Shown one piece after another: positions 31,824 to 63,141 of a DNA stretch of 64,000 nt. This stretch comes from Octopus vulgaris (taxonomy: Eukaryota), in the NCBI GenBank assembly GCA_951406725.2, contig OX597819.1, forward strand, positions 97,526,001-97,590,000, given 5' to 3'. The translations under genes and the position numbers were made by a program. Each line of letters opens with the position of its first letter. Position 1 is the stretch's first letter. The notes beneath the pieces are model-generated. The model had not been told where the DNA came from. It worked only from the letters and a program-made list of their open reading frames with translations, and made no database searches.

Positions 31824-31915
31824 CGCCTGCAGAGGGACTTGAACCCGCGACCCTCAGATTTTATCACTCGAGAGTTCTTAAAAGTCTGATGCTCTACCGA
31901 CTGAGCTATGCGGGC
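31824..31915 (-). tRNA. tRNA-Lys(UUU), 19-nt intron
   Basis: Intron AGAACTCTCGAGTGATAAA (G at -3 lost); C4:A69 mismatch. Confidence 0.7.
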
Positions 31916-32340
31916 TTCAACCGCTAGATTTAACTTTTAGACAAATGAAATATAATGGACTTAGCTACACATTCCTTGTTGAAGGAAACGATTGTTGTAT
32001 AAAGCTGTCATCTGATATCTTATGTTACCCCTTAGTGGTTTCTAATAACTCCTTCAAATTTACTACTGATATTTAATATAGTAATTCGTTCATTCATCAA
32101 GTCCCATACTGGTAAAGTCATATTGATCATTCAAAATGTATATACACTATTCTCTTTCAATTATAATCTTTTCTACTCTAGGCACAAGGCCCGACATTTT
32201 TGTGGAGGGTGCCAGTCGAATAGATCGACCCCAGAGCGCATGTGGTATAATATAGCACTGTACCTATGCCTGTGTTTAGCCCCTTGTGGGTAATAAAGAA
32301 ATAGGTATAATATAGCCCTCATCTGTTTCAGTTGCATCAC

Positions 32341-32580
32341 GAAAACTATGTTATGAAGTATTTTTCCATATTTCTCCTGAAGGAGGTGTCATTTTTTGGA
32401 CATTTGTAAAAGGGAAAGATCTTAAATTTTCCTTCTCCACATGTATCTGGGTATTTACTCAGTGAAACACCTAGATACATGTGGAGAAGGAAAATTTAAG
32501 ATCTTTCCCTTCTACAAATGTCTAAAGAATGACACCTCCTTCAGGAGAAATATGGAACAATACTTCATAACAAAGTTCTC
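32341..32580. repeat. 240-bp palindrome, loop orientation A
   Basis: About 116-bp inverted arms around ACTCAGTG. Confidence 0.95.
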
Positions 32581-32659
32581 CACCAAATTGAATGGCTGAA
32601 AATATTTCTATAATATTTTGTACTAGATGAAGGACGAAATTTGTAAAGTAAGTTGTATT

Positions 32660-32704
<45 letters not shown>

Positions 32705-32926
32705 CATGCACACAAACAGTACTACACATATGTACATATAAATAAATAAAAACACTCTTTCATCCAGATTCTCCAACCCATATCAGCACAGGTATCAAAC
32801 ATTGGATTGAAAGACTCACCAGTTGCAAAAATGTAAACACATTTTTTTCTTCTTTCCCTCCTCCTCCTCCTTCCTTTCATTCCCTTTCCCATTTGACACA
32901 CCTTTCAGATACACAGACACGCACAC

Positions 32927-32993
<67 letters not shown>

Positions 32994-33516
32994 CTCTCTC
33001 TCACACAAGACAATGATAAAAAAAGAAATCAAGACAATTTTTTGAAAAGTGACATTTTGCTCCCCTTGGAGTGACCAGCTGGGTGTGCCATTTCTAAAAG
33101 CCAATAATCACTTACCATTGAAAGACTGACCAGCTGCAAAGATATCAGCAAATATTTTTCTTCTTTCTCTCCTTATTCTTCCTTTCCTTCTCTTTTCTTT
33201 AAAACTTCTTTAAGATACAAAAACACACACGATCTCTCTCTCTCACTTTCTCCCCATTCTTCACCCTCTTGTAGTATCTTAAAATCTCTCCCCGCCCCTA
33301 CACACTCAATAATACTATAAAAGGAGACAAAATTCCTGCAAAAGTTCAATTTGAAAACTCCACTAGAGTGGACCAAAGCGCTTTTATATGATATATGATT
33401 CATAAAAAATGTAACATACTTATAAATATCTGTAAATATAAAACCATCCAGCAAATATAAAACCAACCAGTCAATTGGGCATTTTCTTCTTGGACAATTT
33501 CCAAAAGAAAAATCGT

Positions 33517-33608
33517 CGCCCGCAGAGGGACTTGAACCCGCGACCCTCAGATTTCATTACACGGCAGTTCTTAAAAGTCTGATGCTCTACCGACTGAGCT
33601 ATGCGGGC
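33517..33608 (-). tRNA. tRNA-Lys(UUU), 19-nt intron
   Basis: GCCCGCATAGCTCAGTCGGTAGAGCATCAGACTTTTA-[AGAACTGCCGTGTAATGAA]-ATCTGAGGGTCGCGGGTTCAAGTCCCTCTGCGGGCG, T5 terminator. Confidence 0.9.
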
Positions 33609-33664
33609 TGACATGCGATTCACCCAAAATTTAGATAGATTAAATCTTTTGAACTTAGCTAATA

Positions 33665-33909
33665 CTAGCAGTATCGCCCGGCGTTGCTCGGGTTTGTAAG
33701 GGAAATAATTATAAAGCATTTTTAGAGAGTTATAGCCAAAAAATGGGAAAAAATGATGGTAAATTTTTTTCTTAGTTAAAAAGGTCGAGTTGCGTCCCCT
33801 AGACGGTCTGTGGTTTAGAATCGGTTGAAAGCCGTGGTCAGAGTGAGGGTACGAGAAAACAGACACACAGAAACACGCACAGACAAACTGCCGTTTATAT
33901 AGAGAGAGA
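33665..33909 (-). mobile_element. Non-autonomous Helitron (245 bp)
   Basis: 5'-TC, 3' hairpin CCCGAGCAACGCCGGG plus CTAG, inserted at A|T without TSD; empty site ctaata|tatacctacg at 46791-46806. Confidence 0.92.
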
Positions 33910-34034
33910 TATACCTACGTACATACATACACACAAGCATACATACATATATACATACATACATGCATACATACATACATACATACATACATACATACAT
34001 ACATACATACATACACAAACAATACTCAGATGAA

Positions 34035-34070
34035 ATCTGAGGGTCGCGGGTTCAAATCCTTCTGGGGGCA
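34035..34070 (+). pseudogene. Inverted tRNA-Lys 3' half
   Basis: ATCTGAGGGTCGCGGGTTCAAATCC.. preceded by the intron end ATGAA; no 5' exon. Confidence 0.85.
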
Positions 34071-34206
34071 ACGAGTTTTCTTTTGGAAATTGGTCCAGAA
34101 GAAATAACCAATTGACAGGTTTCAAACAAGGAGGGGCCCAGTCGAATAGATCGACTCTAGTACGCAGGTGGTTTAATATAGCCATCAGTTATTTCAGTTG
34201 CAACAC

Positions 34207-34446
34207 GAGAACTATGTTATGAAGTATTTTTCCATATTTCTCCTGAAGGAGGTGTCATTCTTTGGACATTTGTAGAAGGGAAAGATCTTAAATTTTCCTT
34301 CTCCACATGTATCTGGGTATTTACTCAGCGAAACACCTAGAAACATGTGGAGAAGGAAAATTTAAGATCTTTCCCTTCTACAAATGTCCAAAGAATGACA
34401 CCTCCTTCAGGAGAAATATGGAACAATACTTCATAACATAGTTCTC
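34207..34446. repeat. 240-bp palindrome, loop orientation A
   Basis: GAGAACT..AGTTCTC arms. Confidence 0.95.
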
Positions 34447-34525
34447 CACCAAATTAAATGACTGAAAATATTTCTATAATAATTTGTACTAGATGAAGGA
34501 CCAATTTTGTAAAGTAAATTGTATT

Positions 34526-34614
<89 letters not shown>

Positions 34615-34843
34615 TACACACAAACAGTACTACACATATGTACATATGCATAAAGAAAATCACTCTTTCATCCAGGTTCCCCAACCCATATCAGCACAGG
34701 TATCAAACATTGGATTGAAAGACTCACCAGTTGCAAAAATGTAAACACATTTTTTTTTCTTTCCCTCCTCCTCCTTCCTTTCATTCCCCTTTCCCATTTG
34801 ACACACTTTTCAGATACACAGACACCCACACACACGCGCACAT

Positions 34844-34909
<66 letters not shown>

Positions 34910-34914
34910 GCGCA

Positions 34915-34949
<35 letters not shown>

Positions 34950-35484
34950 AAGACAATGATAAAAAAGAAATCCAGATAATTATTTGAAAAGTGACATTTT
35001 GCTCCCCTTGGAGTGACCAGCAGGGTTTGCCATTTCTAAAAACCAAGAATCACTTACCATTGAAAGACTGACCAGCTGCAAAGATATCAGCAAATTTTTT
35101 CTTCTTTGTCTCCTTCTTCTTCCTTTCCTTCTCTTTTTCTTTAACACCTCTTTAAGATACAAAAACACACACGATCTCTCTCTCTCACTTTCTCCTCATT
35201 CTTCACCCTCTTGTAGTATCTTATATCTTTCCCCGCCCCTACACACTCAATAATACTATAAAAGGAGACAAAATTCCTGCAAAAGTTCAATTTGAAAACT
35301 CCACTAGAGTGGACGAAAGCGCTCTTATATGATATATGATTCATAAAAAATGTAACATACTAATAAATATCTATAAATATAAACATACTAATAAATATCT
35401 GTAAATATAAAACCATCCAGCAAATATAAAACCAACTAGTCAATTGGACATTTCTTCCGGGACAATTTCCAAAAGAAAAGTCAT

Positions 35485-35576
35485 CGCCCGCAGAGGGACT
35501 TGAACCCGCGACCCTCAGATTTCATAACACGGCAGTTCTTAAAAGTCTGATGCTCTACCGACTGAGCTATGCGGGC
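35485..35576 (-). tRNA. tRNA-Lys(UUU), 19-nt intron
   Basis: Consensus exons; intron core GCCGTG. Confidence 0.9.
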
Positions 35577-36103
35577 TGACACGCCATTCAACGAAAATTT
35601 AGATAGATTAAATCTTTTGAACTTAGCTACTATATACATACGTGCATACATACATAAATACATACATGATAATTTAAGAGGAGCCATTGTGTGTGATTTT
35701 TGATGGCGGAAATGGATCTAGTACCATGTAAATGTATGTTTCTTTATAGATGAAAACTGTCGTCGGAGATCTATACTCATGCTTCAGAGAATTACCTGGG
35801 CCGTCAGTTAATTTACATGAGACAATTATTAAATTTTACTTGTTTCAGTCATTAGACTGTGGCCGAAGATGATGACATAGCGTGGTAGGAATAAAAGAGC
35901 AAAAGACTGAATGCTAATGGAAATAGAAGAGCGTAAAAATATTTCGAAAGACCGGAAGGACATTGCCAAGCTGGAAAACGTGATGGGCAGCAAGAAAGTA
36001 TTGAGCAAAAAGGGAAAACAATTGTAACAGTTGCCGGGTGAAAATGTGTTCGACTAAGAAAAAGAAAAAAATAAAGGAAATGGTATTGCATGAAAAAATT
36101 TGC

Positions 36104-36195
36104 CGCCCGCAGAGGGACTTGAACCAGCGACCCTCAGATTTCATAACTGGACAGTTCTTAAAAGTCTGATGCTCTACCGACTGAGCTATGCGGGT
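36104..36195 (-). pseudogene. tRNA-Lys(UUU) probable pseudogene
   Basis: A1:C72 and extra T-stem U51:C63 mismatches; intron core GTCCAG. Confidence 0.7.
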
Positions 36196-36709
36196 TTCCT
36201 ACCGCCCAGTTTAACTTTTACACAAATGAAATATGGACTTAGCTACACATTCCTTGTTAACTGAATCGATTGCTGCATAAAGCTGTCATCTGATGTCTTA
36301 TGTCACCCCGTAGTGATTACTAATAATTTCTTCACATTTACTACTGATATCTAACATAGTAATTCATTCACTCATCAAGTCCCATCGTGGTAAAGTCATA
36401 TTGGTCATTCAAAATGTATATACACTACTCACTTTCAATTATAATCTTTTCTACTCTAGGCACAAGGCCCGACATTTTTGTGGAGGGGCCAGTCGAATAG
36501 TTCGACCCCAGTGCGCAGGTGGTATAATATAGATAGAAAGAAGATAGAAAAAAATGAAGTACAGAAGTTATTTATCGAAAGATATTCGAATTCCAGCTTA
36601 CTCTTGTTTCCTAACACCTAATGAATTGAATTCAAGAAATTTAAGTTCTCATATCTGAAACCAGTTAATTGGGTATTTCTTCAAGGTCATTTTCGAAAAG
36701 AGAAGTCGT

Positions 36710-36800
36710 CGCCCACAGATGGACTTAAACCTGCGTCCCTCAGATTTCATCACTCGAAATGCTTAAATGTCTGATGCTCTACCGACTGAGCTATGCGGGC
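36710..36800 (-). pseudogene. tRNA-Lys(UUU) pseudogene
   Basis: U33A, damaged B-box and T-stem, 18-nt intron. Confidence 0.85.
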
Positions 36801-37193
36801 TGACAACTGTTTCAGCGAAAAGTTAGATAGATTAAATCTTTTAAACCTACCTACTATATACGTACGTACATATATACAAACATACATACAATACTACTTG
36901 CAATGGTTACAGTTCCATTACACAATCTCATTAAATTTTACTTGTTTCAGTCATTAGACTGTGGCCGAAGATGATGACATAGTGTGGTAGGAATAAAAGA
37001 GCAAAAGACTGAATGCTAATGGAAATAGAAGAGCCTAAAAATATTTCGAAAGACCGGAATGACGTTGCCAAGCTGGAAAATGTGATGGGCAGCAAGAAAA
37101 GATTGAGGAAAAAAGGAAAAAATTGTAAGAGTAGCAGGGCGAAAATGTGCTCGACTACGAGAAAAAAAAATGGTATTGCAAGTAAAATCATGT

Positions 37194-37285
37194 CGCCCGC
37201 AGAGGGACTTGAACCAGCGACCCTCAGATTTCATAACTCGGCAGTTCTTAAAAGTCTGATGCTCTACCGACTGAGCTATGCGGGC
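37194..37285 (-). tRNA. tRNA-Lys(UUU), 19-nt intron (weak T-stem)
   Basis: U51:C63 extra mismatch; intron core GCCGAG. Confidence 0.65.
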
Positions 37286-37727
37286 TTCCGACTGCCCGCT
37301 TTAACTTTTAGACAAATGAAATATTATGGACTTAGCTATACATTCCTTGTTAACTGAAACAATTGCTGTATAAAGCTGTCATCTGATGTCTTATGTCACC
37401 CCGTAGTGATTACTAATAATTCCTTCACATTTACTACTGATGTTTAATGTAGTAATTCGTTCACTCATCAAGTCCCATCCTGTTAAAGTCATATTGGTCA
37501 TTAAAAATGTATATACACTACTCTCTTTCAGTTATAATCTTTTCTACTTTAGGCACAAGGCCCGACATTTTTGTGGAAGGTGCCAGTCGAATAGATCGAC
37601 CCCAGTACGCAGGTGGTATAATATAGCACTGTACCTATGCCTGTGTGTACCTATGCCTGTACCTATGCCCTTGTGGGTAATAAAGAAATATGTATAATAT
37701 AGCCCTCATCTGTTTCAGTTGCATTAC

Positions 37728-37967
37728 GGGAAGTATGTTTTGAAGTATTTTTCCATATTTCTCCTGAAGGAGGTGTCATTCTTTGGACATTTGTAGAAGG
37801 GAAAGATCTTAAATTTTCCTTCTCCACATGTATCTGGGTGTTTCACTGAGTAAATACCCAGATACATGTGGAAAAGGAAAATTTAAGATCTTTCCCTTCT
37901 ACAAATGTCCAAAGAATGACACCTCTTTCAGGAGAAATATGGAAAAATACTTCATAGCAAAGTTCTC
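37728..37967. repeat. 240-bp palindrome, loop orientation B (inverted)
   Basis: Centre reads GTGTTTCACTGAGTAAATAC. Confidence 0.95.
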
Positions 37968-38046
37968 CACCAAATTAAATGGCTGAAAATATTTCTATAA
38001 TATTTTGTACTAGATGAAGAAACAATTTTGTAAAGTAAATTGTATT

Positions 38047-38109
<63 letters not shown>

Positions 38110-38609
38110 CTCTCTCACAAGACAATGATAAAAAAGAAATCCAGACAATTTTTTGAAAAGGGACATTTTGCTCCCCTTGGAGTGACTAGCTGGGTTTGCC
38201 ATTTCTAAAAGCCAAGAATCACTTACCATTGAAAGACTGACCAGCTGCAAAGATATCAGTAAATTTTTTCTTCTTTCTCTCCTTCTTCTTCTTTTCCTTC
38301 TCTTTTTCTTTAACATTCCTTTAAGATACAAAAACACACACGATCTCTCTCTCCTCTCTCTCACTTTCTCCCCATTCTTCACTCTCTTGTAGTATCTTAT
38401 ATCTCTCCCCGCCCCTACACACTCAATAATACTATAAAAGGAGACAAAATTCCTGCAAAAGTTCAATTTGAAAACTCCACTAGAGTGGACGAAAGCGCTT
38501 TTATATGATACTAGCAGAATTGCCCGGCGTTGCTCGGGGCTGAATTGCTTGAAAGTACTGTTAATGATTGCACTGAATTATGATGATTATTCATGCAAAT
38601 ATTGATAAA

Positions 38610-39120
38610 ATTTTACGGTGGGCGATAAGGACTTAACGATCAAACGTGTGCCATTGCATTGTTTTGGGGGAACCAAATTTCTGATGAGCATTATAGGGGC
38701 ACCAACGTTAAGTTTGAGAAAGTGTGGTGGTAGTCCGGGGTGCTCAAAGGAATTGAGTACCTCTATTGGATAGTTGATGACGTCCTCTGTGTGTCAGGAG
38801 TTGTATCGATAGACTGATATACATAGACTTCCCCAGGAATGAGTTTTAGCATTTCATCATTAATATGGTGAACAGTTTTATTCCTCGGGGCCAGTATAGC
38901 CTTTTTGCCAATCCAATCCATATTCTGATAATTAGCTTGTAGATCTGGGAACACTGCATCTCTGAGATCAGAAGGCGTCTTAACAACGGTACAAATGGAA
39001 TCGATGGCAATATTACCATTTTCATCCCCTGGTATTTTGCCTTCGCCAAGTGCAAGGAGGGTGTGAGGAAATGCTCTTGATGTGATATTACGTCGCATAT
39101 TGGTGTGAAGTTTGAGAGTT
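38610..39120 (-). pseudogene. Helitron Pif1-family helicase fragment
   Basis: LHTNMR..LLALGEG..AILAPRNKTVHHIN..YQSID, frameshift, then [41 protein letters not shown]. Confidence 0.9.
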
Positions 39121-39346
39121 ATTTCCCTCTATTAAAAAAATATGCATTAAAATGGAAAAAAATGATGGTAAATTATTTGTAAAATCGTAGACTCATCGTA
39201 GACGCGCGCTAATACCCAGAAGGGCTCGATATGAATGACGACTATAAGATACCCGGTTTTGGTTAAACTGCATCGCAAAATGTGGGAGTAGTTAGGAATC
39301 TAAATCGGAGTAGACAGACACACAACCTTTCTTTTATATATAAAGA

Positions 39347-39870
39347 TTTTCGTCCTAAAAAACTTTGTATGGATTGAATGGTTACCTCTATGGAAATATA
39401 TACACGCACATTATACATACATGTGTGTATAGATGAATATATAAATACATTTAAATATCTATATACACTTTTGGACGATCTTTCTGTTTCTTAGAGATAA
39501 CTTTAGATCTTATTTTCCTCCTAAAAACTTTGTATGGAGTGAATGGTTACCTCTATGGAAATATATACACACACGTTATACATACATGTGTGCATAGATG
39601 AATATATAAATACATTTATATATCTATATACACTTTTGGGCGATCTTTCTGCTACTTAGAGATAACTTTAGATCTTATATTCGTCCTAAATAACTTTGTA
39701 TGGAGTGAATGGTTACCTCTATGGAAATATATACACACACATTATACATACATCTGTGTATAGATGAATATATAAATACATTTAAATATCTATATACACT
39801 TTTGGGCGATCTTTCTGCTACTTGGATATACTTTAGATCTTATATTCGTCCTAAAAAACTTTGTATGAAT
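39347..39870. repeat. About 165-bp minisatellite x3 inside the Helitron
   Basis: Units start near 39351, 39517, 39682, 39847. Confidence 0.85.
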
Positions 39871-41087
39871 TGAAAAAGAAAATGAATTGAAATTTTTAAG
39901 AAAGGAATTTGTTTACATACATGTGTGAAATGGCAAATGTTTGTGCAGTTGTCCGAAATGGAACCAGGGTTAATGTGTGGAACTGATGTATTATAATGAA
40001 TAGTCCTTCTTGTTGTGAATATTAATTTGATTAATATGAACCGAAAACCAGTGGTGTAGCATATAAGACCATAGGTGATCTTCTAGCAAAAAGGATGACC
40101 AGTCTGACTGGCTCATCCCTGTCAAACACTCACACACACGCACACATACACACGCACCTTCACACACACACACACACGCACACACACACACTCACACACA
40201 CGCACACACACACGTTAGCTTACAATTTTATTTATATATTTGCGTGTCTATGTGTGTAAAGAGGAAGTGGGAGTAATATGCAGAGTAAAGGCTTTGAAGT
40301 GAAAGAGTGAAATGTTAGTTTTCTCGAATTTTTTCTGAAATGGGGGTGAAATTGAAAGAAATTTTGTATGCCATGACCGAATGGAAGTACTTTGAAAAAT
40401 CATAGGTAAACTCTAATTGAAGAAATTGTGTGAGGAGTAAATCGTTATGTATTTATTTGCTTCTGTTTGCTGTGTTTTTTTTTTGAGTAGTGATTTAAGG
40501 TACACTTGCAAAGAGAAAGTATGAGAAATTATGGTGATAGCATGAGTGAAGCAGTTCATCCGTTTTATATAAATACTTTCACTTTAATCGTTGCACACTT
40601 GCAAAAAGAAAGGAGGAGAAATTAGGGTGATAGCATGAGTGAAGCAGTTCGCTCCGTTTTTGTGTGTGTGTGTGTGCTGTAGCCCACACTAAGAAAAGCA
40701 CTTCACTTACACACCACAATGTGAGTTTTCTCGAAATTTTGCTTAATTGGGGGTGAAATTTGAAAAACTGTACCTGGCACGACCCGATGTATTCTACTCT
40801 TAAAAATGCTAGGTAAATTGTAATTGAAGAAATCCTATATTGTAGATTTCTATAAGAGACAAAGGGAGGCACATAAAATCTGCCTTTTATAATAAGAGAT
40901 AAGAGACAAAGGGAGGCAGATAAAATCTGCCTTTTATAATAAGAGATATGATTCATAAAAATTGTAACATACTAATAAATATCTGTAAATATAAAACAAT
41001 CCAGCAAATATAAAACCATTCCACAAATATAAAACCAACCAGTCAATTGGACATTTCTTCTGCGACAACATCCAAAAGAAAAATCGT

Positions 41088-41179
41088 CGCCCGCAGAGGG
41101 ACTTGGACCCGCGACCCTCAGATTTCATAACGCGGCAGTTCTTAAAAGTCTGATGCTCTACCGACTGAGCTATGCGGGC
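41088..41179 (-). tRNA. tRNA-Lys(UUU), 19-nt intron (U55C)
   Basis: B-box GGTCCAAGTCC; intron core GCCGCG. Confidence 0.6.
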
Positions 41180-41344
41180 TGACATGCGATTCAGCGAAAA
41201 TTTAGATAGATTAAATCTTTTGAACTTAGCTACTATATACAAACGTACAAACATACACCCAAACATACATACATATATACATACGTACATGCATACATTC
41301 ATACATACATACATACATACATACACAAACAATACTCAGATGAA

Positions 41345-41380
41345 ATCTGAGGGTCGCGGGTTCAAATCCCTCTGCAGGCG
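41345..41380 (+). pseudogene. Inverted tRNA-Lys 3' half
   Basis: 3' exon only, B-box intact. Confidence 0.85.
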
Positions 41381-42247: not shown

Positions 42248-42339
42248 CGCCCGCAGAGGGATTTGAACCCGCGACCCTCAGATTTCATAACCCGGCAGTT
42301 CTTAAAAGTCTGATGCTCTACCGACTGAGCTATGCGGGC
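42248..42339 (-). tRNA. tRNA-Lys(UUU), 19-nt intron
   Basis: Consensus exons (T-loop TTCAAAT); intron core GCCGGG. Confidence 0.9.
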
Positions 42340-42742: not shown

Positions 42743-42795
<53 letters not shown>

Positions 42796-44014: not shown

Positions 44015-44080
<66 letters not shown>

Positions 44081-44938: not shown

Positions 44939-45030
44939 CGCCTGCAGAGGGACTTGAACCCGCGACCCTCAGATTTCATAACTCGACAGTTCTTAAAAGT
45001 CTGATGCTCTACCGACTGAGCTATGCGGGC
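44939..45030 (-). tRNA. tRNA-Lys(UUU), 19-nt intron
   Basis: C4:A69 mismatch; intron core GTCGAG. Confidence 0.75.
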
Positions 45031-46648: not shown

Positions 46649-46740
46649 CGCCCGCAGAAGGACTTGAACCCGCGACCCTCAGATTTCATAACACGACAGT
46701 TCTTAAAAGTCTGATGCTCTACCGACTGAGCTATGCGGGC
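46649..46740 (-). tRNA. tRNA-Lys(UUU), 19-nt intron
   Basis: G51.U63 wobble; intron core GTCGTG. Confidence 0.8.
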
Positions 46741-48329: not shown

Positions 48330-48421
48330 CGCCCGTATAGGGACTTGAACCCGCGACCCTCAGATTTCATAACACGGTAGTTCTTAAAAGTCTGATGCTC
48401 TACCGACTGAGCTATGCGGGC
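48330..48421 (-). pseudogene. tRNA-Lys(UUU) probable pseudogene
   Basis: G49:A65 and C6:A67 mismatches; intron core ACCGTG. Confidence 0.65.
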
Positions 48422-49188: not shown

Positions 49189-49280
49189 CACCCGCAGAGG
49201 GACTTGAACCCTCGATCCTCAAATTTCATAACACGACAGTTCTTAAAAGTCTGATGCTCTACCGACTGAGCTATGCGGGC
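49189..49280 (-). tRNA. tRNA-Lys(UUU), 19-nt intron (variant)
   Basis: A50-U64 paired, G1.U72, G30.U40; intron core GTCGTG. Confidence 0.7.
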
Positions 49281-49793: not shown

Positions 49794-49884
49794 CGCCCGC
49801 AGAGGGACTTAACATGCGTCCCTCAGATTTCATCAATCTAAAGTTCTTAAAAGTCTGATCCTCTACCGACTGAGCTATACGGGC
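49794..49884 (-). pseudogene. tRNA-Lys(UUU) pseudogene
   Basis: B-box destroyed, D-stem change; intron core TTAGAT. Confidence 0.85.
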
Positions 49885-51582: not shown

Positions 51583-51624
<42 letters not shown>

Positions 51625-51875: not shown

Positions 51876-51967
51876 CGCCCGTATAGGGACTTGAACCCGC
51901 GACCCTCAGATTTCATAACACGGTAGTTCTTAAAAGTCTGATGCTCTACCGACTGAGCTATGCGGGC
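51876..51967 (-). pseudogene. tRNA-Lys(UUU) probable pseudogene
   Basis: Duplicate of 48330. Confidence 0.65.
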
Positions 51968-52092: not shown

Positions 52093-52122
52093 ATCTGAGG
52101 GTCGCGGGTTCAAATCCCTCTG
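52093..52122 (+). pseudogene. Inverted, 3'-truncated tRNA-Lys 3' half
   Basis: Duplicate of 48559. Confidence 0.8.
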
Positions 52123-52722: not shown

Positions 52723-52814
52723 CACCCGCAGAGAGACTTGAACCCTCGACCCTCAGATTTCATAACACGACAGTTCTTAAAAGTCTGATGCTCTACCGAC
52801 TGAGCTATGCGGGC
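52723..52814 (-). tRNA. tRNA-Lys(UUU), 19-nt intron (variant)
   Basis: A50-U64 paired, G1.U72, G52.U62; intron core GTCGTG. Confidence 0.7.
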
Positions 52815-53328: not shown

Positions 53329-53419
53329 CGCCCGCAGAGGGACTTAACATGCGTCCCTCAGATTTCATCAATCTAAAGTTCTTAAAAGTCTGATCCTCTA
53401 CCGACTGAGCTATACGGGC
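53329..53419 (-). pseudogene. tRNA-Lys(UUU) pseudogene
   Basis: Duplicate of 49794. Confidence 0.85.
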
Positions 53420-53690
53420 TGTCAAGCGTTTCAGCGAAAAGTTAGATAGATTAAATCTTTTGAACCTATCTACTATATACATACGTACATATATACAAAC
53501 ATACATACATACAATACTACTTGCAATGGTTACATTGCAATGGTTACATTTCTACTCTAGGCACAAGGCCCGACATTTTTGTAGAGGGGGGCCAGTCGAA
53601 TAGATCGACCTCAGTGCGCAGGTGTTTAGCCCATAGTGGGTAATAAAGAAATGGGTATAACATAGTCCTCATCTGTTTCAGTTGCATCAC

Positions 53691-53930
53691 GAGAACTATG
53701 TTATGAAGTATTTTCCCATATTTCTCCTGAAGGAGGTGTCATTCTTTGGACATTTGTAGAAAGAAAAGATCTTAAATTTTCCTTCTCCACATGTATCTGG
53801 GTATTTACTCAGTGAAACACCTAGAAACATGTGGAGGAGGAAAATTTAAGATCTTTCCCTTCTACAAATGTCCAAAGAATGACACCTCTTTCAGGAGAAA
53901 TATGGAAAAATACTTCGTAACAAAGTTCTC
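53691..53930. repeat. 240-bp palindrome, loop orientation A
   Basis: As 32341. Confidence 0.95.
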
Positions 53931-54009
53931 CCCCAAATTAAATGGCTAAAAATGTTTCTATAATATTTTGTACTAGATGAAGGACCAAATTTGTAAAGTA
54001 AATTGTATT

Positions 54010-54045
<36 letters not shown>

Positions 54046-54273
54046 GCACACAAACAGTACTACACATATGTACATATAAATAAATAAAAACACTCTTTCA
54101 TCCAGATTCTCCAACCCATATCAGCACAGGTATCAAACATTGGATTGAAAGACTCACCAGTTGCAAAAATGTAAACACATTTTTTCTTGTTTCCCTCCTC
54201 CTCCTCCTTCCTTTCATTCCCTTTCCCATTTGACACTTCCTTTCAGATACACAGACACCCACACACACGCGCA

Positions 54274-54337
<64 letters not shown>

Positions 54338-54894
54338 CTCTCTCTCTCTCTCTCACACAAGACAATGATAAAAAAAGAAATCAAGACAATTTTTTGAAAA
54401 GTGACATTTTGCTCCCCTTGGAGTGACCAACTGGGTTTGCCATTTCTAAAAGCCAATAATCACTTACCATTGAAAGACTGACCAGCTGCAAAGATATCAG
54501 CAAATTTTTTCTTCTTTCTCTCCTTCTTCTTCCTTTCCTTCTCTTTTTCTTTAACACCTCTTTAAGATACAAAAACACACACGATCTCTCTCTCTCTCTC
54601 TGTCTCTCTCTCTCTCTCTCACTTTCTCCCCATTCTTCACACCCTCTTGTAGTATCTTAAAATCTCTCCCCGACCCTACACACTCAATAATACTATAAAA
54701 GGAGACAAAATTCCTGCAAAAGTTCAATTTGAAAACTCCACTAGAGTGGACCAAAGCGCTTTTATATGATATATGATTCATAAAAAATGTAACATACTAA
54801 TAAATATCTGTAAATATAAAACCATCCAGCAAATATAAAACCAACCAGTCAATTGGGCATTTTCTTCTTGGACAATTTCCAAAAGAAAAATCGT

Positions 54895-54986
54895 CGCCCG
54901 CAGAGGGACTTGAACCCGCGACCCTCAGATTTCATAACACGGCAGTTCTTAAAAGTCTGATGCTCTACCGACTGAGCTATGCGGGC
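54895..54986 (-). tRNA. tRNA-Lys(UUU), 19-nt intron
   Basis: Consensus exons; intron core GCCGTG. Confidence 0.9.
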
Positions 54987-55175
54987 TGACATGCGATTCA
55001 ACAAAAATTTAGATAGATTAAATCTTTTGAACTTAGCTAATATATATCTACGTACATACATACACACAAGCATACATACATATATACATACATACATGCA
55101 TACAAACATACATACATACATACATACATACATACATACATACATACATACATACACAAACAATACTCAGATGAA

Positions 55176-55211
55176 ATCTGAGGGTCTTGGGTTCAAATCC
55201 TTCTGGGGGCG
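55176..55211 (+). pseudogene. Inverted tRNA-Lys 3' half
   Basis: 3' exon only, degenerate. Confidence 0.8.
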
Positions 55212-55347
55212 ACGAGTTTTCTTTTGGAAATTGGTCCAGAAGAAATAACCAATTGACAGGTTTCAAACAAGGAGGGGTCCAGTCGAATAGATCGACTCCA
55301 GTACGCAGCTGGTTTAATATAGCCATCAGTTATTTCAGTTGCAACAC

Positions 55348-55587
55348 GAGAACTATGTTATGAAGTATTTTTCCATATTTCTCCTGAAGGAGGTGTCATT
55401 CTTTGGACATTTGTAGAAGGGAAAGATCTTAAATTTTCCTTCTCCACATGTATCTAGGTATTTACTCAGCGAAACACCTAGAAACATGTGGAGAAGGAAA
55501 ATTTAAGATCTTTCCCTTCTACAAATGTCCAAAGAATGACACCTCCTTCAGGAGAAATATGGAAAAATACTTCATAACAAAGTTCTC
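55348..55587. repeat. 240-bp palindrome, loop orientation A
   Basis: As 34207. Confidence 0.95.
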
Positions 55588-55665
55588 CACCAAATTAAAT
55601 GACTGAAAATATTTCTATAATATTTGTACTAGATGAAGGACCAAATTTGTAAAGTAAATTGTATT

Positions 55666-55715
<50 letters not shown>

Positions 55716-55930
55716 ACAAACAGTACTACACATATGTACATATACGTAAAGAAAATCACTCTTTCATCCAACACGTATCAGCACAGGTATCAAACATTGG
55801 ATTGAAACCCTCACCAGTTGCAAAAATGTAAACACATTTTTTTTTCTTTCCCTCCTCCTCCTTCCTTTCATTCCCCTTTCCCATTCGACACACTTTTAAG
55901 ATACACAGACACCCACACACACGCGCACAT

Positions 55931-55968
<38 letters not shown>

Positions 55969-56498
55969 GCGCACCCTCTCTCTCTCTCTCTCAGAAGACA
56001 ATGATAAAAAAGAAATCCAGTTAATTATTTGAAAAGTGACATTTTGCTCCCCTTGGAGTGACCAGCTGGGCTTGCCATTTTTAAAAGCCAATAATCACTT
56101 ACCATTGAAAGACTGACCAGCTGAAAATATAACAGCAAATTTTTTCTTCTTTCTCTCCTTCTTCTCCCTTTCCTTCTATTTTTCTTTAACACTACTTTAA
56201 GATACACAAACACACACGATCTCTCTCTCTCTCTTTCTCTCTCTCTCACTTTCTCCCCATTCTTCACCCTCTTGTAGAATCATATATCTCTCCCTGCCCC
56301 TACACACTCAATAATACTATAAAAGGAGACAAAATTCTTGCAAAAGTTCAATTTGAAAACTCCACTAGAGTGGACGAATGCGCTTTTATATGATATATGA
56401 TTCATAACAAACGTAACATACTTATAAATATCTGTAAATATAAAACCAACCAGTCAATTGGACATTTCTTCTGCAACAATTTCCAAAACAAAAAACGT

Positions 56499-56590
56499 CG
56501 CCCGCAGAGGGACTTGAACCCGCGACCCTCAGATTTCATAACACGGTAGTTCTTAAAAGTCTGATGCTCTACCGACTGAGCTATGCGGGC
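56499..56590 (-). tRNA. tRNA-Lys(UUU), 19-nt intron
   Basis: Consensus exons; intron core ACCGTG. Confidence 0.9.
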
Positions 56591-56719
56591 TGACACACAA
56601 AACAACGAAAATTTAGATAGATTAAATCTTTTGAACTTAGCTACTATATACATACGTACATACATACATACATACATACATACATACATACATACACACA
56701 CAAACAATACTCAGATGAA

Positions 56720-56749
56720 ATCTGAGGGTCGCGGGTTCAAATCCCTCTG
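56720..56749 (+). pseudogene. Inverted, 3'-truncated tRNA-Lys 3' half
   Basis: As 48559. Confidence 0.8.
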
Positions 56750-57314
56750 ATTATTTAATCCCATTGATTATTTAAGATTTTCATTTATTACCAAAGGACA
56801 TCTATCTATATAAATATCTTGTTTTCTGGCACTAATAATACAATATCTTAAAATGTAATAATCAATAGTGTTGCTCTTAATGCGCAGCAGTGGTGCAACG
56901 AAGTTTAATATATGAAAATACATGATAATATAAGAGGAGCCATTGTGTGTGATTTTAGATGGCTGAAATGGATCTAGTACCATGTAAATGTACGTTTCTT
57001 TATAGATGAAAACTGTAGTCAGAGATCTATACTCATGCTTCACAGTATTACCAGGGCTGTCAGTTAATTTACATGTGACAATTATTATATATTATTTGTT
57101 TCAGTCATTAGACTGTGGCCGAAGATGATGACATAGCGTGGTAGGAATAAAAGAGCAAAAGACTGAATGCTAATGGAAATAGAAAACGTGATGGGCAGCA
57201 AGAAAGGATTGAGCAAAAAGGGAAAGTAATTGTAACAGTTGCAGGGTGACAATGTGTTCGACTAAGAAAAAAAAAAAAAAAAAAAGAAATGGTATTGCAT
57301 GATAAAAATTGTGT

Positions 57315-57406
57315 CGCCCGCAGAGGGACTTGAACCCGCGACCCTCAGATTTCATAACTAGACAGTTCTTAAAAGTCTGATGCTCTACCGACTGAGCTAT
57401 GCGGGC
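57315..57406 (-). tRNA. tRNA-Lys(UUU), 19-nt intron
   Basis: Consensus exons; intron core GTCTAG. Confidence 0.9.
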
Positions 57407-57798
57407 TTCCGTCCGTTCAGTTTAACTTTTAGACAAATGAAATATTATGGACTTAGCTAGACATTCCTTGTTAACTGAAACGATTGTTGTATAAAGCTGT
57501 CATCTGATATCTTATGTCACCCCGTAGTGATTACTAATAATTCCTTCACATTTACTACTGATATCTAATATAGTAATTCGTTCACTCATCAAGTCCCATT
57601 CTGGTAAAGTCATACTTGTCATACAAAATGTATATACACTACTCTATTTCAATTATAATCATAACAATGTTCTCCACCAAATTAAATGGCTTAAAATATT
57701 TCTATAATAATTTGTACTAGATGAAGGACCAATTTTGTAAAGTAAACTGTATTAAACACACAGACACACACACACACACACAGACACACAGACACACA

Positions 57799-57846
<48 letters not shown>

Positions 57847-58063
57847 CACACAAACAGTACTACACATATGTACATATACATAAATATTAATAATCTTTCA
57901 TCCAGATTCTCCAACGCATATCAGCACAGGAATCAAACACTGGATTGAAAGATTTATACAGTGGTATAAATGTCAACACAATTATTTCTTCTTCTTCTCT
58001 TTCTTCTATCTTCCTTCTCCAGCGACAACCCTTCCAGATACACAGGCACCCACACACACATGT

Positions 58064-58123
<60 letters not shown>

Positions 58124-58622
58124 CAATGACAAAAAGAAATCCAGACAATTTTTGGAGAAGTGACATTTTGTCCCCCTTGAAGTGGCCAATTGAGTTTGCC
58201 ATTTCTAAAAGCCAAGAGTCATTTACCATTGAAAGACTGACTAGCTGCAAAGATATCAACAAATTTTTTCTTCTTTCTCTCCTTCTTCCTTTCCTTCTCT
58301 TTTTCTTTAACACACCTTTAAGATACAAAAACACACATGATCTCTCTCTCTCACGTTCTCCCCATTCTTCACCCTCTTGTAGTATCTTATATCCCTCCCC
58401 GCCCCTACACACACAATAATGCTATAAAAGGAGACAAAATTCCTGCAAAAGTTCAATTTGAAAACTCCACTAGAGTGGACGAAAGCGCTTTTATATGATA
58501 TATGATTCATAAAAAATGTAACATACTAATAAATATCTGTAAGTATAAAACCATCCAGCAAATATAAAACCAACCTGTCAATTGGACATTTCTTCTGCGA
58601 CAATTTCCAAAAGAAAAATCGT

Positions 58623-58714
58623 CGCCCGCAGAGGGACTTGAACCCGCGACCCTCAGATTTCATAACGCAACAGTTCTTAAAAGTCTGATGCTCTACCGAC
58701 TGAGCTATGCGGGC
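58623..58714 (-). tRNA. tRNA-Lys(UUU), 19-nt intron
   Basis: Consensus exons; intron core GTTGCG. Confidence 0.9.
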
Positions 58715-59093
58715 TTCCATCCGTTCAGTTTAACTTTTAGACAAATGAAATATTATGGACTTAGCTAGACATTACTTCTTAACTGAAACGATTGTTGTAT
58801 AAAGCTGTCATCTGATATCTTATGTCACCCCGTAGTGATTACTAATAATTCCTTCACATTTACTACTGATATTTAATATAGTAATTCGTTCACTCATCAA
58901 GTCCCATCCTGGTAAAGTCATACTTGTCATACAAAATGTATATACACTACTCTCTTTCAATTATAATCATAACAATGTTCTCCACCAAATTAAATGGCTT
59001 AAAATATTTCTATAATAATTTGTACTAGATGAAGGACCAATTTTGTAAAGTAAACTGTATTAAACACATACACACACACACACAGACACACAG

Positions 59094-59140
<47 letters not shown>

Positions 59141-59431
59141 AACAGTACTACACATATGTACATATACATAAATATTAATAATCTTTCATCCAGATTCTCC
59201 AACGCATATCAGCACAGGAATCAAACACTGGATTGAAAGATTTATACAGTGGTATAAATGTCAACACAATTATTTCTTCTTCTTCTCTTTCTTCTATCTT
59301 CCTTCTCCAGCGACAACCCTTCCAGATACACAGGCACCCACACACACATGTGCACACACACACACACATGTGCACACACACACACATGTGCACACACACA
59401 CGTGCACACATACATGTGCACACATACATGT

Positions 59432-59486
<55 letters not shown>

Positions 59487-59705
59487 AATGATAAAAAGAA
59501 ATCCAGACAATTTTTTGAGAAGTGACATTTTGCCCCCCGTGAAGTGGTCAGTTGAGTTTGCCATTTCTAAAAGCCAAGAAATATTTTCTATTGAAAGACT
59601 CACCAGTTGCAAAAATGTAAACACATTTTTTTCTTCTTTCTCTCCTCCTCCTTCCTTTCATTCCCTTTCCCATTTGACACCTTATTCGGATACACAGACA
59701 CCCAC

Positions 59706-59756
<51 letters not shown>

Positions 59757-60258
59757 CTCTCTCTCCCTCTCACAAGACAAGGATAAAAAAGAAATCCAGA
59801 CAATTTTTTGAAAAGGGACATTTTGCTCCCCTTGGAGTGACCAGCTAGGTTTGCCATTTCTAAAAGCCAAGAATCCCTTACCATTGAAAGACTGACCAGC
59901 TGCAAAGATATCAGTAAATTTTTCTTCTTTCTCTCCTCCTTCTTCTTCGTGTCCTCTTTTTCTTTAACACTTATTTAAGATACAAAAACACACGATCTCT
60001 CTCTCTCACTTTCTCCCCGTTCTTCACCCTCTTGTAGTATCTTATATCTCTCCCCGATCCCTACACACTCAATAATACTATAAAAGGAGACAAAATTCCT
60101 GCAAAAGTTCAATTTGAAAACTCCAATAGAGTGGACGAAAGCCCTTTTATATGATATATGATCCATAAAAAATGTAGCATACTAATAAATATCTGTAAAT
60201 ATAAAACCATCCAGCAAATATAAAACCAACCAGTCAATTGGACCAAAAGAAAAATCGT

Positions 60259-60350
60259 CGCCCGCAGAGGGACTTGAACCCGCGACCCTCAGATTTCATA
60301 ACTCGGCACTTCTTAAAAGTCTGATGCTCTACCGACTGTGCTATGCTGAC
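60259..60350 (-). pseudogene. tRNA-Lys(UUU) pseudogene
   Basis: 5' acceptor strand GTCAGCA and D-stem/A-box mutation. Confidence 0.8.
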
Positions 60351-60485
60351 TGACACATGATTCAACAAAAATTTAGATAGATTAAATCTTTTGAACTTAG
60401 CTACTATATACATACGTACATACACACAAGCATACATACATACATACATACATACATACATACATACAAACAATACTCAGATGAA

Positions 60486-60521
60486 ATCTGAGGGTCGCGG
60501 GTTCAAATCCCTCTGCGAGCG
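60486..60521 (+). pseudogene. Inverted tRNA-Lys 3' half
   Basis: 3' exon only, B-box intact. Confidence 0.85.
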
Positions 60522-61393
60522 ACGAGTTTTCTTTTGGAAATTGTCCCAGAAGAAATAACCAATTGACAGGTTTCAAATATGAGAATTTAAATTTCTATAA
60601 TTCAATTGATTGGATGTGGAAACAGCTGCAAGCAGGAATTTCTCTGCATCAATTCGAATTTTTTTGAATTCGGAAATGCCCAACGTCGTCGAGTCATATC
60701 GAGGGAATGCCCATATATTAACAATTGGCTGTGTCTTCATGGGGTCACTCTGTTAGCTTACGCTAATGTATATTGACTATTCTTTACAGGTTTCTATTAA
60801 ATGTGTGAGTGTGATTTTCATTCTTTATCAAAGGATATCTATCTCTCTATATATCTTGTTTTCTGGCACTAATATCATAATATCTTATATAATCAATGGT
60901 GTTGTTCTTAATGCGCAGTTGTGGTGCAACGAAGTTTAATATATGAAAATACATGATAATATAAGAGGAGCCATTGTGTGTGATTTTAGATGGCTGAAAT
61001 GGATCTAGTACCATTTAAATGTATGTCTCTTTATAGATGAAAACTGTAGTCAGAGATCTATACTCATGCTTCATAGAATTACCAGCGCCGTCAGTTAATT
61101 TACATGTGACAATGATTATATTTTACTTGTTTCATCCATTAGACTGTAGCCGAAGATGATGACATAGCGTGGTAGGAATAAATGAGCAAAAGACTGAATG
61201 CTAAGGGAAATAGAAGAGCGTAAAAATATTTCGAAAGACCGGAATGACATTGCCAAGCTGGAAAACGTGATGGGCAGCAAGAAAGGATTGAGCAAAAAGG
61301 GAAAACAATTTTAACAGTTGCAGTGTGAAAATATGTTCGACTAAGAAAAAGAAAAAAAAAAAAAAAGAAATGGTATTGCATGAAAAAATTTGA

Positions 61394-61485
61394 CGCCTGC
61401 AGAGGGACTTGAACCCGCGACCCTCAGATTTCATAACCCGACAGTTCTTAAAAGTCTGATGCTCTACCGACTGAGCTATGCGGGC
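61394..61485 (-). tRNA. tRNA-Lys(UUU), 19-nt intron
   Basis: C4:A69 mismatch; intron core GTCGGG. Confidence 0.75.
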
Positions 61486-61851
61486 TGTCGTTCGTCCGGT
61501 TTAACTTTTAGACAAATGAAATATTTTGGACTTAGCTATACATTCCTTGTTAACTGAAACGATTTTTGAATAAAGCCGTCATCTGAAGCCTTATGTCACC
61601 TCGTAGTGATTACTAATAATTCCTTCACATTTACTACTGATATTTAATATAGTAATTCGTTCACTCATCAAGTCCCATCCTGGTAAAGTCATACTTGTCG
61701 TACAAGATGTATATACACTACTCACTTTCAATTATAATATTTTCTACCCTAGGCACAAGGCCCGATGTTTTTGTGGAGTGGGCCAGTCGAATAGATCGAC
61801 CCCAGTGCGCAGCTGGTATAATATAGCCCTCATCTGTTTCAGTTGCATCAC

Positions 61852-62090
61852 GAGAACTATGTTATGAAGCATTTTTCCATATTTCTCCTGAAGGAGGCGC
61901 CATTCTTTGGACATTTGTAGAAGGGAAAGATCTTAAATTTTCCTTCTCCACATGTATCCAGGTGTTTCACTGAGTAAATACCCAGATACATGTGGAGAAA
62001 GAAATTTAAGATCTTTCCCTTCTACAAATGTCCAAAGAATGACACCTCCTTCAGGAGAAATATGGAACAATACTTCATAACAAAGTTCTC
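61852..62090. repeat. 239-bp palindrome, loop orientation B (inverted)
   Basis: Centre reads GGTGTTTCACTGAGTAAATACCC. Confidence 0.95.
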
Positions 62091-62437
62091 CACCAAATTA
62101 AATGGCTGAAAATGTTTCTATAATATTTTGTACTAGATGAAGGACAAATTTTGTAAAGTAAATTGTATTAAACACACACACACACACACACATACACGCG
62201 CGCGCGCGCACACAAACAGTACTACACATATGTACATATACGTAAATAAAAACACTCTTTCATCCAGATTCTCCATCCCATATCAGCACAGGTATCAAAC
62301 ATTGGATTGAAAGACTCACCAGTTGCAAAAATGTAAACACATTTTTTCTTCTTTCACTCCTCCTCCTTCCTTTCATTCCCCTTTCCCATTGGACACACCT
62401 TTCTGATACACAGACACCCACCCACACGCGCGCACAT

Positions 62438-62489
<52 letters not shown>

Positions 62490-62745
62490 ACACACACACA
62501 CGCTCTCTCTCTCTCTCTCTCTCACAAGACAATGATAAAAAAGAAATCCAGATAATTATTTGAAAAGTGACATTTTGCTCCGCTTGGAGTGACCAGCTGG
62601 GTTTGCCATTTCTAAAAGCCAAGAATCACTTACCATTGAAAGACTGACCAGCTGCAAAGATATCAGCAAATTTTTTCTTCTTTCTCTCCTTCTTCCTTTC
62701 CTTCTATTTTTCTTTAACACTACTTTAGGATACAAAAACACACAC

Positions 62746-62779
<34 letters not shown>

Positions 62780-63049
62780 ACATTCTCCACATTCTTCACC
62801 CTCTTGTAGCCTCATATATCACTCCCCGCCCCTACACACTCAATAATACTATAAAAGGAGAAAAAATTCCTGCAAAAGTTCAATTTGAAAACTCCACTAG
62901 AGTGGACGAAAGAGCTTTTATATGATATATGACTCATAAAAAATGTAACATACTAATAAATATCTGTAAATATAAAACCATCCAGCAAATATAAAACCAA
63001 CCAGTTAATTGGACATTTCTTCTGCGACAATTTCCAAAAGAAAATTCGT

Positions 63050-63141
63050 CGCGCGCAGAGGGACTTGAACCCGCGACCCTCAGATTTCATAACACGGTAG
63101 TTCTTAAAAGTCTGATGCTCTACCGACTGAGCTATGCGGGC
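63050..63141 (-). tRNA. tRNA-Lys(UUU), 19-nt intron
   Basis: C3:C70 mismatch; intron core ACCGTG. Confidence 0.7.

Follow-up and report, generated by a model that had tools for sequence, protein, structure and literature searches.

Loop variation in the introns of a tandem tRNA-Lys(TTT) gene array and its probable link to Pol III transcription

Positions 31824..63141 of the window, the 64-kb stretch of DNA analysed here, hold an irregular tandem array of 23 tRNA-Lys(TTT) genes, all on the minus strand and each interrupted at the canonical 37/38 position, one base 3' of the TTT anticodon, by an intron. We propose that the variable core of this intron, which a preliminary description had presented as a barcode, is probably its least constrained part, subject to the same raised, Pol III-linked mutation rate as the near flanks. 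A copy-identifying barcode or diversified cassette is not supported, and no coding or tagging role is predicted for the core. The array most likely consists of ordinary intron-containing tRNA genes, in which the mutation profile known from such genes can be read base by base within one genome.

Organisation of the array and identity of its genes

The genes are spaced 485-3894 nt apart, with microsatellite-rich spacers, and the 23 copies and exactly the same 14 cores reported earlier were recovered. The proposed motif AGAACT-[N6]-TTATGAA does not arise by chance, with 28 matches at up to two mismatches against a mean of 4.9 and a maximum of 9 in shuffled sequences, but its core follows the consensus GYCGNG rather than N6, and the copy at 36710-36800, with an 18-nt intron, does not fit it. 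Run with introns, ARAGORN found 20 array copies, 17 of which it called Lys(ttt) i(38,19), with one Leu and two Stop miscalls among the rest; it missed the three class C copies and also called a gene at 29831. The intron option is needed, as the array genes are otherwise miscalled Stop, Leu or Ile.

The copies fall into three flank classes, A, B and C. The consensus copy is of class B (35485..35576, minus strand), with exon 1 at 35540-35576, the intron at 35521-35539, exon 2 at 35485-35520 and the core GCCGTG at 35528-35533. The same core is found in the class B copies 33517..33608 and 54895..54986, and ACCGTG in 48330..48421 (two extra stem mismatches), its recent duplicate 51876..51967, 56499..56590 and 63050..63141. 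The remaining class B copies are 41088..41179 (GCCGCG, with a B-box change), 46649..46740 (GTCGTG) and 60259..60350 (GCCGAG, with acceptor and D-stem mismatches). Class A comprises 36104..36195 (GTCCAG, two extra stem mismatches), 37194..37285 (GCCGAG), 42248..42339 (GCCGGG), 49189..49280 and its recent duplicate 52723..52814 (both GTCGTG), 57315..57406 (GTCTAG) and 61394..61485 (GTCGGG). The class C copies are degenerate: 36710..36800 has the core TTCGAG and an altered B box and position 33, while 49794..49884, with a 1-nt T-arm deletion, and its recent duplicate 53329..53419 have TTAGAT. Three units have chimeric flanks. Class A sequence upstream is joined to class B sequence downstream in 58623..58714 (GTTGCG) and to C-like sequence in both 31824..31915 (CTCGAG) and its duplicate 44939..45030 (GTCGAG); the former has an acceptor mismatch and a broken anticodon-intron pair (C:A).

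A 24th tRNA-Lys(TTT) gene adjoins the array at 29831..29924 on the minus strand, with a class A upstream flank and an unrelated 21-nt intron. On the plus strand, an inverted orphan 3' half at 34030..34069 consists of the intron end and exon 2, without an A box, and eight further inverted orphan 3' halves lie at 41340, 46937, 48554, 52088, 55171, 56715, 60481 and 63189. The window also contains a C2H2 ORF, whose best 120 of 7618 matches are animal zinc-finger proteins with 34-62% identity. In a search of sequencing runs no RNA run was listed; two runs of one study contain 0.47 and 0.45 of the sampled words and four contain small shares, and none of them serves as evidence here.

The array copies, which are putatively transcribed and spliced, carry features of eukaryotic intron-containing tRNA genes. 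The anticodon-intron pair between C32 and intron position -3 is C:G in 22/23 copies, the B box is intact in 19/23, and a T-run of at least four begins 4-11 nt downstream (+4..+11) in all 24 genes, the array copies and 29831 together. A C50:U64 T-stem mismatch is present in most array copies, and 13/23 have further mismatches in their stems, an altered B box or a deletion, so that some of the units may not be active.

Variation in the intron core and across the transcribed unit

Among the 23 copies, mean pairwise diversity (pi) is 0.021 in exon 1 and 0.075 in exon 2, and within the intron it rises to 0.387 in the core, against 0.043 in the six 5' bases and 0.065 in the seven 3' bases, which bears out the near-invariance described for the 37-nt 5' exon and the intron ends. 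The per-site values along the core (0.55, 0.52, 0.25, 0.17, 0.67 and 0.17) place most of its variation at intron sites 7, 8 and 11, outside the consensus CpG, and the loop bases T6, C9 and G10 are conserved. The claim that the core tags individual copies does not hold: a core of its own is present in only nine of the 23 copies, the other 14 each having one in common with another copy, about three sites vary, and the near flanks are equally variable, with 6-mers of the 5' flank likewise yielding 14 variants. Two cores, GTCGTG and GCCGAG, are not confined to one class, each being found among A as well as B copies. Sites 8 (C/T) and 11 (A/C/G/T), 3 nt apart, are found in all eight possible combinations, which requires repeated mutation or very short repair patches.

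The duplicates 31824 and 44939 differ at 3/19 intron sites, as had been noted, at 0/73 exon sites and at 11/580, 0/20, 1/10 and 3/241 flank sites; only one of the three intron differences falls in the core, however, and the other two lie in the 3' end that had been called constant. The 3' part of the 31824 intron is common to the class C copy 36710, whereas the intron of its twin 44939 is of class A type. The placement of the variable bases in a hairpin loop is likewise only partly sustained: the hairpin is predicted in the anticodon-arm context for 17/23 copies, but its predicted energy is marginal (0 to -1.7 kcal/mol), none is predicted in 7/23 free introns, and no compensatory change occurs among the standard 19-nt introns.

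Rates were compared in 16 of the 23 copies (seven of class A and nine of class B) as minimum changes per site relative to the distal flank, leaving out the three chimeric copies, one with a rearranged downstream flank and the three of class C; counts are small and the copies related. Relative to the distal reference (108 changes on 594 sites), change was 3.71-fold in the inner 5' flank, the 20 nt upstream (27/40 sites, p = 9e-8), 3.67-fold in the core (8/12, p = 0.002) and 3.3-fold in the inner 3' flank, the 10 nt downstream (12/20, p = 6e-4), with 0.82-fold in the outer 5' flank, 0.42-fold in the intron ends and 0.60-fold in the exons. The core does not differ from the inner 5' flank (p = 1.0) and the intron ends do (p = 2e-4). 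When CpG-, GC- and AT-specific distal rates are applied, the excess is 2.7-fold in the inner 5' flank, 2.3-fold in the core and 3.2-fold in the inner 3' flank, that of the core (p = 0.028) being measured on a segment picked post hoc; the whole intron reaches 1.3-fold (10 changes observed, 7.7 expected, p = 0.25). The core thus exceeds the distal flank with CpG modelled, but neither it nor the whole intron exceeds the near flanks, which goes half way towards refuting the earlier reading. By the same correction, exon 1 changes at 0.25 times the expected rate (p = 5e-4). The outer 5' flank, at 0.8-1.0x, shows no increase. Distal 19-nt stretches attain the value of the core in 0/387 cases in class A and 51/171 in class B, and the core excess is clear in A and not in B. 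The localised hypermutation suggested earlier survives as a raised rate of change in the core, but not as a core-specific one, nor with CpG as its cause.

Variation is high at -20..-1, in the intron loop and at +1..+10, and low in exon 1, the intron ends and -21..-40. The inner 5' flank (35577..35596 in the consensus copy, minus strand) varies between copies as much as the intron core, and the class A and B consensus sequences are alike at 6/20 of its positions, against 26/35 in the block at -55..-21 (p = 0.002). This conserved block (35597..35631 in the same copy, minus strand) is likely to be a TFIIIB/TBP footprint. Change is recurrent at intron sites 8 and 11, and homoplasy reaches up to five cycles in the inner 5' flank against one in the class A core, with any in just 3/217 distal windows. 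In the inner 5' flank, 7/23 minor alleles agree with the other class, about as many as chance would give, which suggests new changes and not imports. C>T and G>A together account for 11/27 changes in the inner 5' flank, 10/16 in the exons, 2/8 in the core and 25/108 in the distal flank, polarised by the majority base only. The orphan halves, which have no A box, show no flank-over-exon contrast, although they form a weak control (Fisher p = 0.08).

It can be hypothesised that Pol III transcribes, or once transcribed, many array copies, and that transcription lifts the mutation rate about 2-4 fold over the transcribed unit. Changes in the exons and intron ends would be purged by selection, both on tRNA function and on TSEN splicing with its anticodon-intron pair and 3-nt bulge, and gene conversion between near-identical exons would assist. 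Unequal crossing-over may multiply the units, which would account for recent duplicates with a common core. The fixed T6, C9 and G10 inside the loop are not explained by Pol III-linked mutation.

Competing explanations

The most serious alternative, which we nevertheless consider unlikely, dispenses with a raised rate. Old copies, drawn from classes A, B and C and other loci, would swap short tracts by exon-anchored gene conversion, so that near-exon sequence looks more diverse while whole-unit duplication homogenises the distal flank. The chimeric units 58623, 31824 and 44939 speak for such exchange, as do the two cores common to classes A and B and the contrast between the class C-like 3' part of the 31824 intron and the class A-type intron of its twin; in 4/7 informative cases the minor allele of the core agrees with the other class, donor comparisons having covered the copies within the window, and conversion among tRNA isodecoder genes is on record in the available text of PMC4090602. 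The inner 5' variants, however, match the other class in just 7/23 cases, the eight combinations of sites 8 and 11 over 3 nt call for repeated mutation or very short patches, and the zone edges fit the transcription-linked profile as far as it is published in the text available. The earlier reading of a spliced intron under structural constraint, with a free loop and conversion, stands in so far as the ends are constrained, the loop is freer and some flanks are chimeric.

That the loop diversity has itself been selected, with excised introns, free or circular, acting as sequence-specific regulators or copy-specific signals, seems very improbable. Free tRNA introns of yeast are described as regulating complementary mRNAs (10.1101/2025.11.19.689297) and animal tRNA introns as able to circularise (PMC6614914), in the accessible text of both sources, and the bases kept inside the loop would suit such a role, but core diversity equals that of the near flanks, and the common cores and few variable sites do not suggest individual signals. 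In a narrow test on one long ORF (9946-11523), the longest complement to any of the 15 distinct introns was 8 nt, a length matched by 186/200 shuffles. We hold it to be just as improbable that the excised Lys(UUU) introns persist as stable small RNAs, with three diversified loop sites set in a fixed T..CG scaffold. Deamination of methylated CpG as the source of the core variants has even less to recommend it. Distal-flank change per site is indeed 0.50 at CpG, against 0.22 at other G/C and 0.14 at A/T, but the core CpG is the conserved part (C in 20/23 copies, G in 21/23), core G changes are transversions, the most variable sites lie outside it, and 2/8 core changes fall on CpG where 2.0 are expected (four sites at 0.50, 16 copies); contradicted by these per-site counts, it was rejected as the cause. 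It is equally hard to credit that the array is made up of dead repeats of tRNA origin, whether SINE-like elements or pseudogenes, or that the variants are assembly errors. The C50:U64 mismatch and the further defects in 13/23 copies would agree with dead repeats, yet the mismatch is also found in 5/112 Lys(TTT) genes from metagenome contigs, exon 1 is strongly conserved, and each unit brings long unique flanks without target-site duplications; a SINE origin was rejected on the exon conservation and the flanks. Assembly error was rejected as well, since recent duplicates share identical cores, which random error would not be expected to produce.

Comparison with known tRNA genes and arrays

The preferred reading, Pol III-linked mutation, gives the array a modest value as a natural mutation-accumulation series. 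Alignable flanks in 23 paralogues, together with degenerate copies and half-genes lacking a promoter, make it a series in which such mutation can be located, and intron and leader variants jointly could help to assign pre-tRNA reads to copies. Catalogues of tRNA introns also gain a minor entry, a Lys(UUU) intron in an animal. Only the improbable regulatory reading would be surprising, as it would have one animal tRNA cluster supply a set of regulatory introns that differ in sequence. A literature search that covered subscription papers thinly found no title or abstract on arrays of Lys(UUU) genes with introns in animals or molluscs, nor on tRNA intron loops that vary, and Lys(UUU) is absent from the five tRNA types that the available part of PMC12168002 lists as intron-rich in animals, fungi and plants.

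Metagenome contigs repeatedly contain Lys(TTT) genes in which the intron arms are constant and the loop varies. These genes were taken by exon-anchored extraction because ARAGORN recognised just 60 Lys intron genes among 125 metagenome loci. Intron position -3 is G in 114/114 distinct genes, and one family of 16 genes with an identical mature tRNA has 14 introns, with a variation peak in the hairpin loop. In position and in their length of 18-21 nt, the introns resemble the TSEN-spliced 37/38 introns (PMC4090602; PMC6614914) and the yeast tRNA-Lys(UUU) family (10.1101/2025.11.19.689297), as far as these are described in the text available, and they have the C32:G anticodon-intron pair that leaves a 3-nt bulge. 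Yeast paralogous introns are reported in the last of these sources as identical or near identical, whereas those of the array differ at about three loop sites.

Tandem organisation has parallels in the Arabidopsis Ser-Tyr-Tyr array (PMC2886086) and the Entamoeba tRNA-STR arrays (PMC2652664), which, according to the accessible portions of these reports, share local amplification, multi-gene duplication units, degenerate copies and simple repeats in the spacers. The array described here differs from them in its single isoacceptor, its animal genome, irregular spacing, three flank classes and inverted orphan half-genes.

The closest correspondence is with transcription-associated hypermutation of tRNA genes (PMC6130373; PMC13010820; bioRxiv 10.1101/2022.08.20.504670), each source being drawn on in its accessible part. 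In PMC6130373, the inner 5' flank is about 4x and the inner 3' flank about 3x more divergent; divergence peaks 12-15 nt upstream and falls off near -25, at the TBP binding site, and intron variation correlates with flank variation. The array differs in that the contrast is among paralogues of one array, not orthologues or alleles, in that its small sample lacks a clear C>T/G>A excess, and in that its outer 5' flank is at 0.8-1.0x where the human value is about 1.5x. Intron variation may run parallel to flank variation, the core being at 2.3x (p = 0.028, post hoc) and the whole intron at 1.3x (p = 0.25), with a clear signal in class A and not in class B. The profile itself agrees, with -20..-1 and +1..+10 raised 3-4x before context correction, a drop upstream of about -20 and conserved exons.

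Organisation of the tRNA-Lys(TTT) array

ARAGORN, run with introns allowed, calls a tRNA-Lys(TTT) gene with a 19-nt intron following position 37, and a BLAST search of the window with one copy as query recovers 23 full copies on the - strand (31824-63141), spaced by 485-3894 nt, together with nine orphan 3' halves on the + strand. A 24th tRNA-Lys(TTT) gene (29831-29924), also recovered by BLAST, lies beside the array and carries an unrelated 21-nt intron; its upstream flank is that of class A, and its intron, different from the array's, has 13 consecutive bases in common with the intron of metagenome locus L050 and 11 with that of L125. Upstream sequence divides the copies into classes A (n=10), B (n=10) and C (n=3), three of the 23 being chimeric. 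The flanks of classes A and B are unrelated except in the block -55..-21 (e.g. 35597-35631), a candidate TFIIIB-binding or positioning element.

A T-run of at least 4 is present at +4 to +11 downstream of all 24 genes, and C32 is pairable with G at intron -3 in 22/23 copies; the splicing determinants described in PMC6614914 are an anticodon-intron pair and a 3-nt bulge. The T-stem mismatch C50:U64 is the array consensus, found in exon 2 of most copies; among the metagenome matches listed, it also occurs in 5/112 Lys(TTT) genes (L093, L115, L116, L120, L121), and 50:64 is unpaired in 26/112. The B box is intact, with no other stem mismatch, in 10 copies, and the remaining 13 have additional defects. 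We infer that array copies would be transcribed and spliced.

The orphan halves, inverted and comprising intron end, exon 2 and trailer, lie at 34030, 41340, 46937, 48554, 52088, 55171, 56715, 60481 and 63189. Eight of them lie directly past a (TACA)n tract adjoining a class B gene and have a common start point inside the intron; three of the nine end early, within exon 2. The eight are likely to represent one old inversion, copied along with the unit. A long inverted repeat (arms ~80-90 nt by eye, spacer 34240-34420, paralogous spacers e.g. 32380-32560 and 37740-37940) is likewise copied with the unit and is possibly a MITE-like element. GC content of the window, which is animal DNA, is 33-41%, and microsatellites are abundant. 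Outside the array, an open C2H2 zinc-finger ORF of 525 codons and ~18 fingers (9946-11523, +) matches animal proteins at 34-62% identity in the best 120 of 7618 matches, and ORF fragments at 13042-13797 (+) and 5421-5810 (-) presumably resemble mariner-type transposases.

Variation of the intron core and of the flanks

The core (intron sites 7-12) occurs as the same 14 variants in 23 copies that the preliminary description listed. It had been taken for a free N6; with a per-site diversity of 0.55, 0.52, 0.25, 0.17, 0.67 and 0.17 it is instead GYCGNG, with three variable sites. Its CpG is mostly kept (C in 20/23, G in 21/23), and T6, C9 and G10 are fixed inside the intron loop. Nor does the core tag individual copies as proposed: it is unique in 9/23 and common to others in 14/23. 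Two cores are found in classes A and B alike, and 6-base words at -10 and -8 of the 5' flank likewise yield 14 variants in the 23 copies. A functional barcode appears highly improbable. The proposed loop hairpin is weak (0 to -1.7 kcal/mol) and absent in 7/23 free introns.

Copies were aligned within flank classes. In class A (n=7), the distal flanks have a pi of 0.072 and 0.056 and the intron ends a pi of 0, compared with 0.29 for the core, 0.25 at -20..-1 (0.42 within -14..-5) and 0.23 at +1..+10; the class B values (n=9) are 0.054 (distal), 0.23 (-20..-1), 0.17 (core) and 0.16 (+1..+10). Sixteen of the 23 copies were pooled (7 class A, 9 class B; three chimeric, one rearranged and three class C copies dropped), and minimum changes per site were expressed relative to the distal flank (108/594). 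The raw ratios are 3.71 for the inner 5' flank (27/40), 3.67 for the core (8/12), 3.3 for the inner 3' flank (12/20), 0.82 for the outer 5' flank, 0.42 for the intron ends and 0.60 for the exons, and core and inner 5' rates do not differ (p = 1.0). With distinct distal rates for CpG (0.50), other G/C (0.22) and A/T (0.14), the ratios become 2.7 for the inner 5' flank (p = 7e-6), 2.3 for the core (p = 0.028), 3.2 for the inner 3' flank (p = 5e-4), 0.25 for exon 1 (p = 5e-4) and 1.3 for the whole intron (p = 0.25), all these tests assuming independent sites and drawing on small counts. When the choice of the best 6-nt window is allowed for, the core's value is attained by 0/387 distal stretches in class A and 51/171 in class B. 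From these ratios and this comparison, the core therefore has a moderate rate excess over distal DNA, which is clear in class A alone; the expectation that it outpaces neutral flank holds to that extent and fails against the gene's near flanks. Changes in exon 2 amount to 10/36 in the promoterless orphan halves vs 12/72 in whole genes, and those in the inner 3' flank to 2/10 vs 12/20 (p = 0.08), a contrast consistent with, and weakly supporting, a link to transcription.

Proposed roles of mutation and conversion

The variable core is real, and the best explanation is probably that it forms the unconstrained portion of a tRNA intron of the ordinary kind: the elevated mutation rate typical of Pol III genes would act on this free loop, and selection and conversion would keep the exons and intron ends constant. 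The main rival, which we consider rather unlikely, is conversion alone. Exchange is suggested by copies 31824 and 44939, whose flanks are, as first described, near-identical and whose introns differ at 3/19 sites; two of these differences lie in the intron 3' end, where 31824 resembles the class C copy 36710, and exchange between copies is a likely origin of them. Core minor alleles match the other class in 4/7 informative cases, vs 7/23 at -20..-1, which is about chance. Isodecoder genes are reported to undergo conversion (PMC4090602), and a tRNA array has been modelled by unequal crossing-over (PMC2886086).

Site 8 of the intron is C or T and site 11 any of the four bases, and all 8 possible pairings are present, which implies repeated change, since sites 3 nt apart are not easily reshuffled by crossing-over. 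Homoplasy at the inner 5' flank equals or exceeds that of the core, and any is seen in only 3/217 distal or outer windows. The class A and B consensus sequences are alike at 6/20 bases in -20..-1, vs 26/35 in -55..-21. We propose that new mutation would arise near the gene, with some conversion across the intron.

Comparison with other tRNA genes

Metagenome contigs scanned for Lys(TTT) exon sequences separated by a gap gave at least 126 stretches, and 125 loci were analysed; among the matches listed, these contain 133 genes, of which 114 are distinct, and their introns, 10-32 nt long, comprise 101 different sequences. G stands at intron -3 in 114/114 distinct genes listed, the search pattern having left -3 free. 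At several loci further tRNA genes are clustered, and in some of these clusters ARAGORN calls introns in Asn, Val, Ser or Thr genes. One family, which like any metagenome family here may span several species, comprises 16 genes with an identical mature tRNA and 14 introns among the matches listed; pi is 0-0.12 in the hairpin arms and 0.54, 0.74, 0.40 and 0.69 at the loop sites, with positions 3, 19 and 20 also variable. The pattern is weaker in a second family (n=14), because one loop site and two 5' sites vary. Since such families show it, the combination of fixed arms and variable loop in a Lys(TTT) intron is, judged by sequence, not peculiar to the array.

A literature search of titles and abstracts found no animal Lys(UUU)-intron array. 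The intron-rich tRNAs named in PMC12168002 are Tyr, Ile, Leu, Arg and Met, Lys being absent there; in yeast, an intron in tRNA-Lys(UUU) is described, as are free introns with a regulatory role (10.1101/2025.11.19.689297). Pol III genes are reported to be hotspots of mutation in which rates differ strongly from site to site (bioRxiv 10.1101/2022.08.20.504670). Divergence of tRNA genes is raised ~4x in the inner 5' flank and 3x in the inner 3' flank, variability peaks 12-15 nt upstream and is lower near -25, and intron variation correlates with flank variation (PMC6130373); a matching pattern is reported for nematode tRNA genes (PMC13010820).
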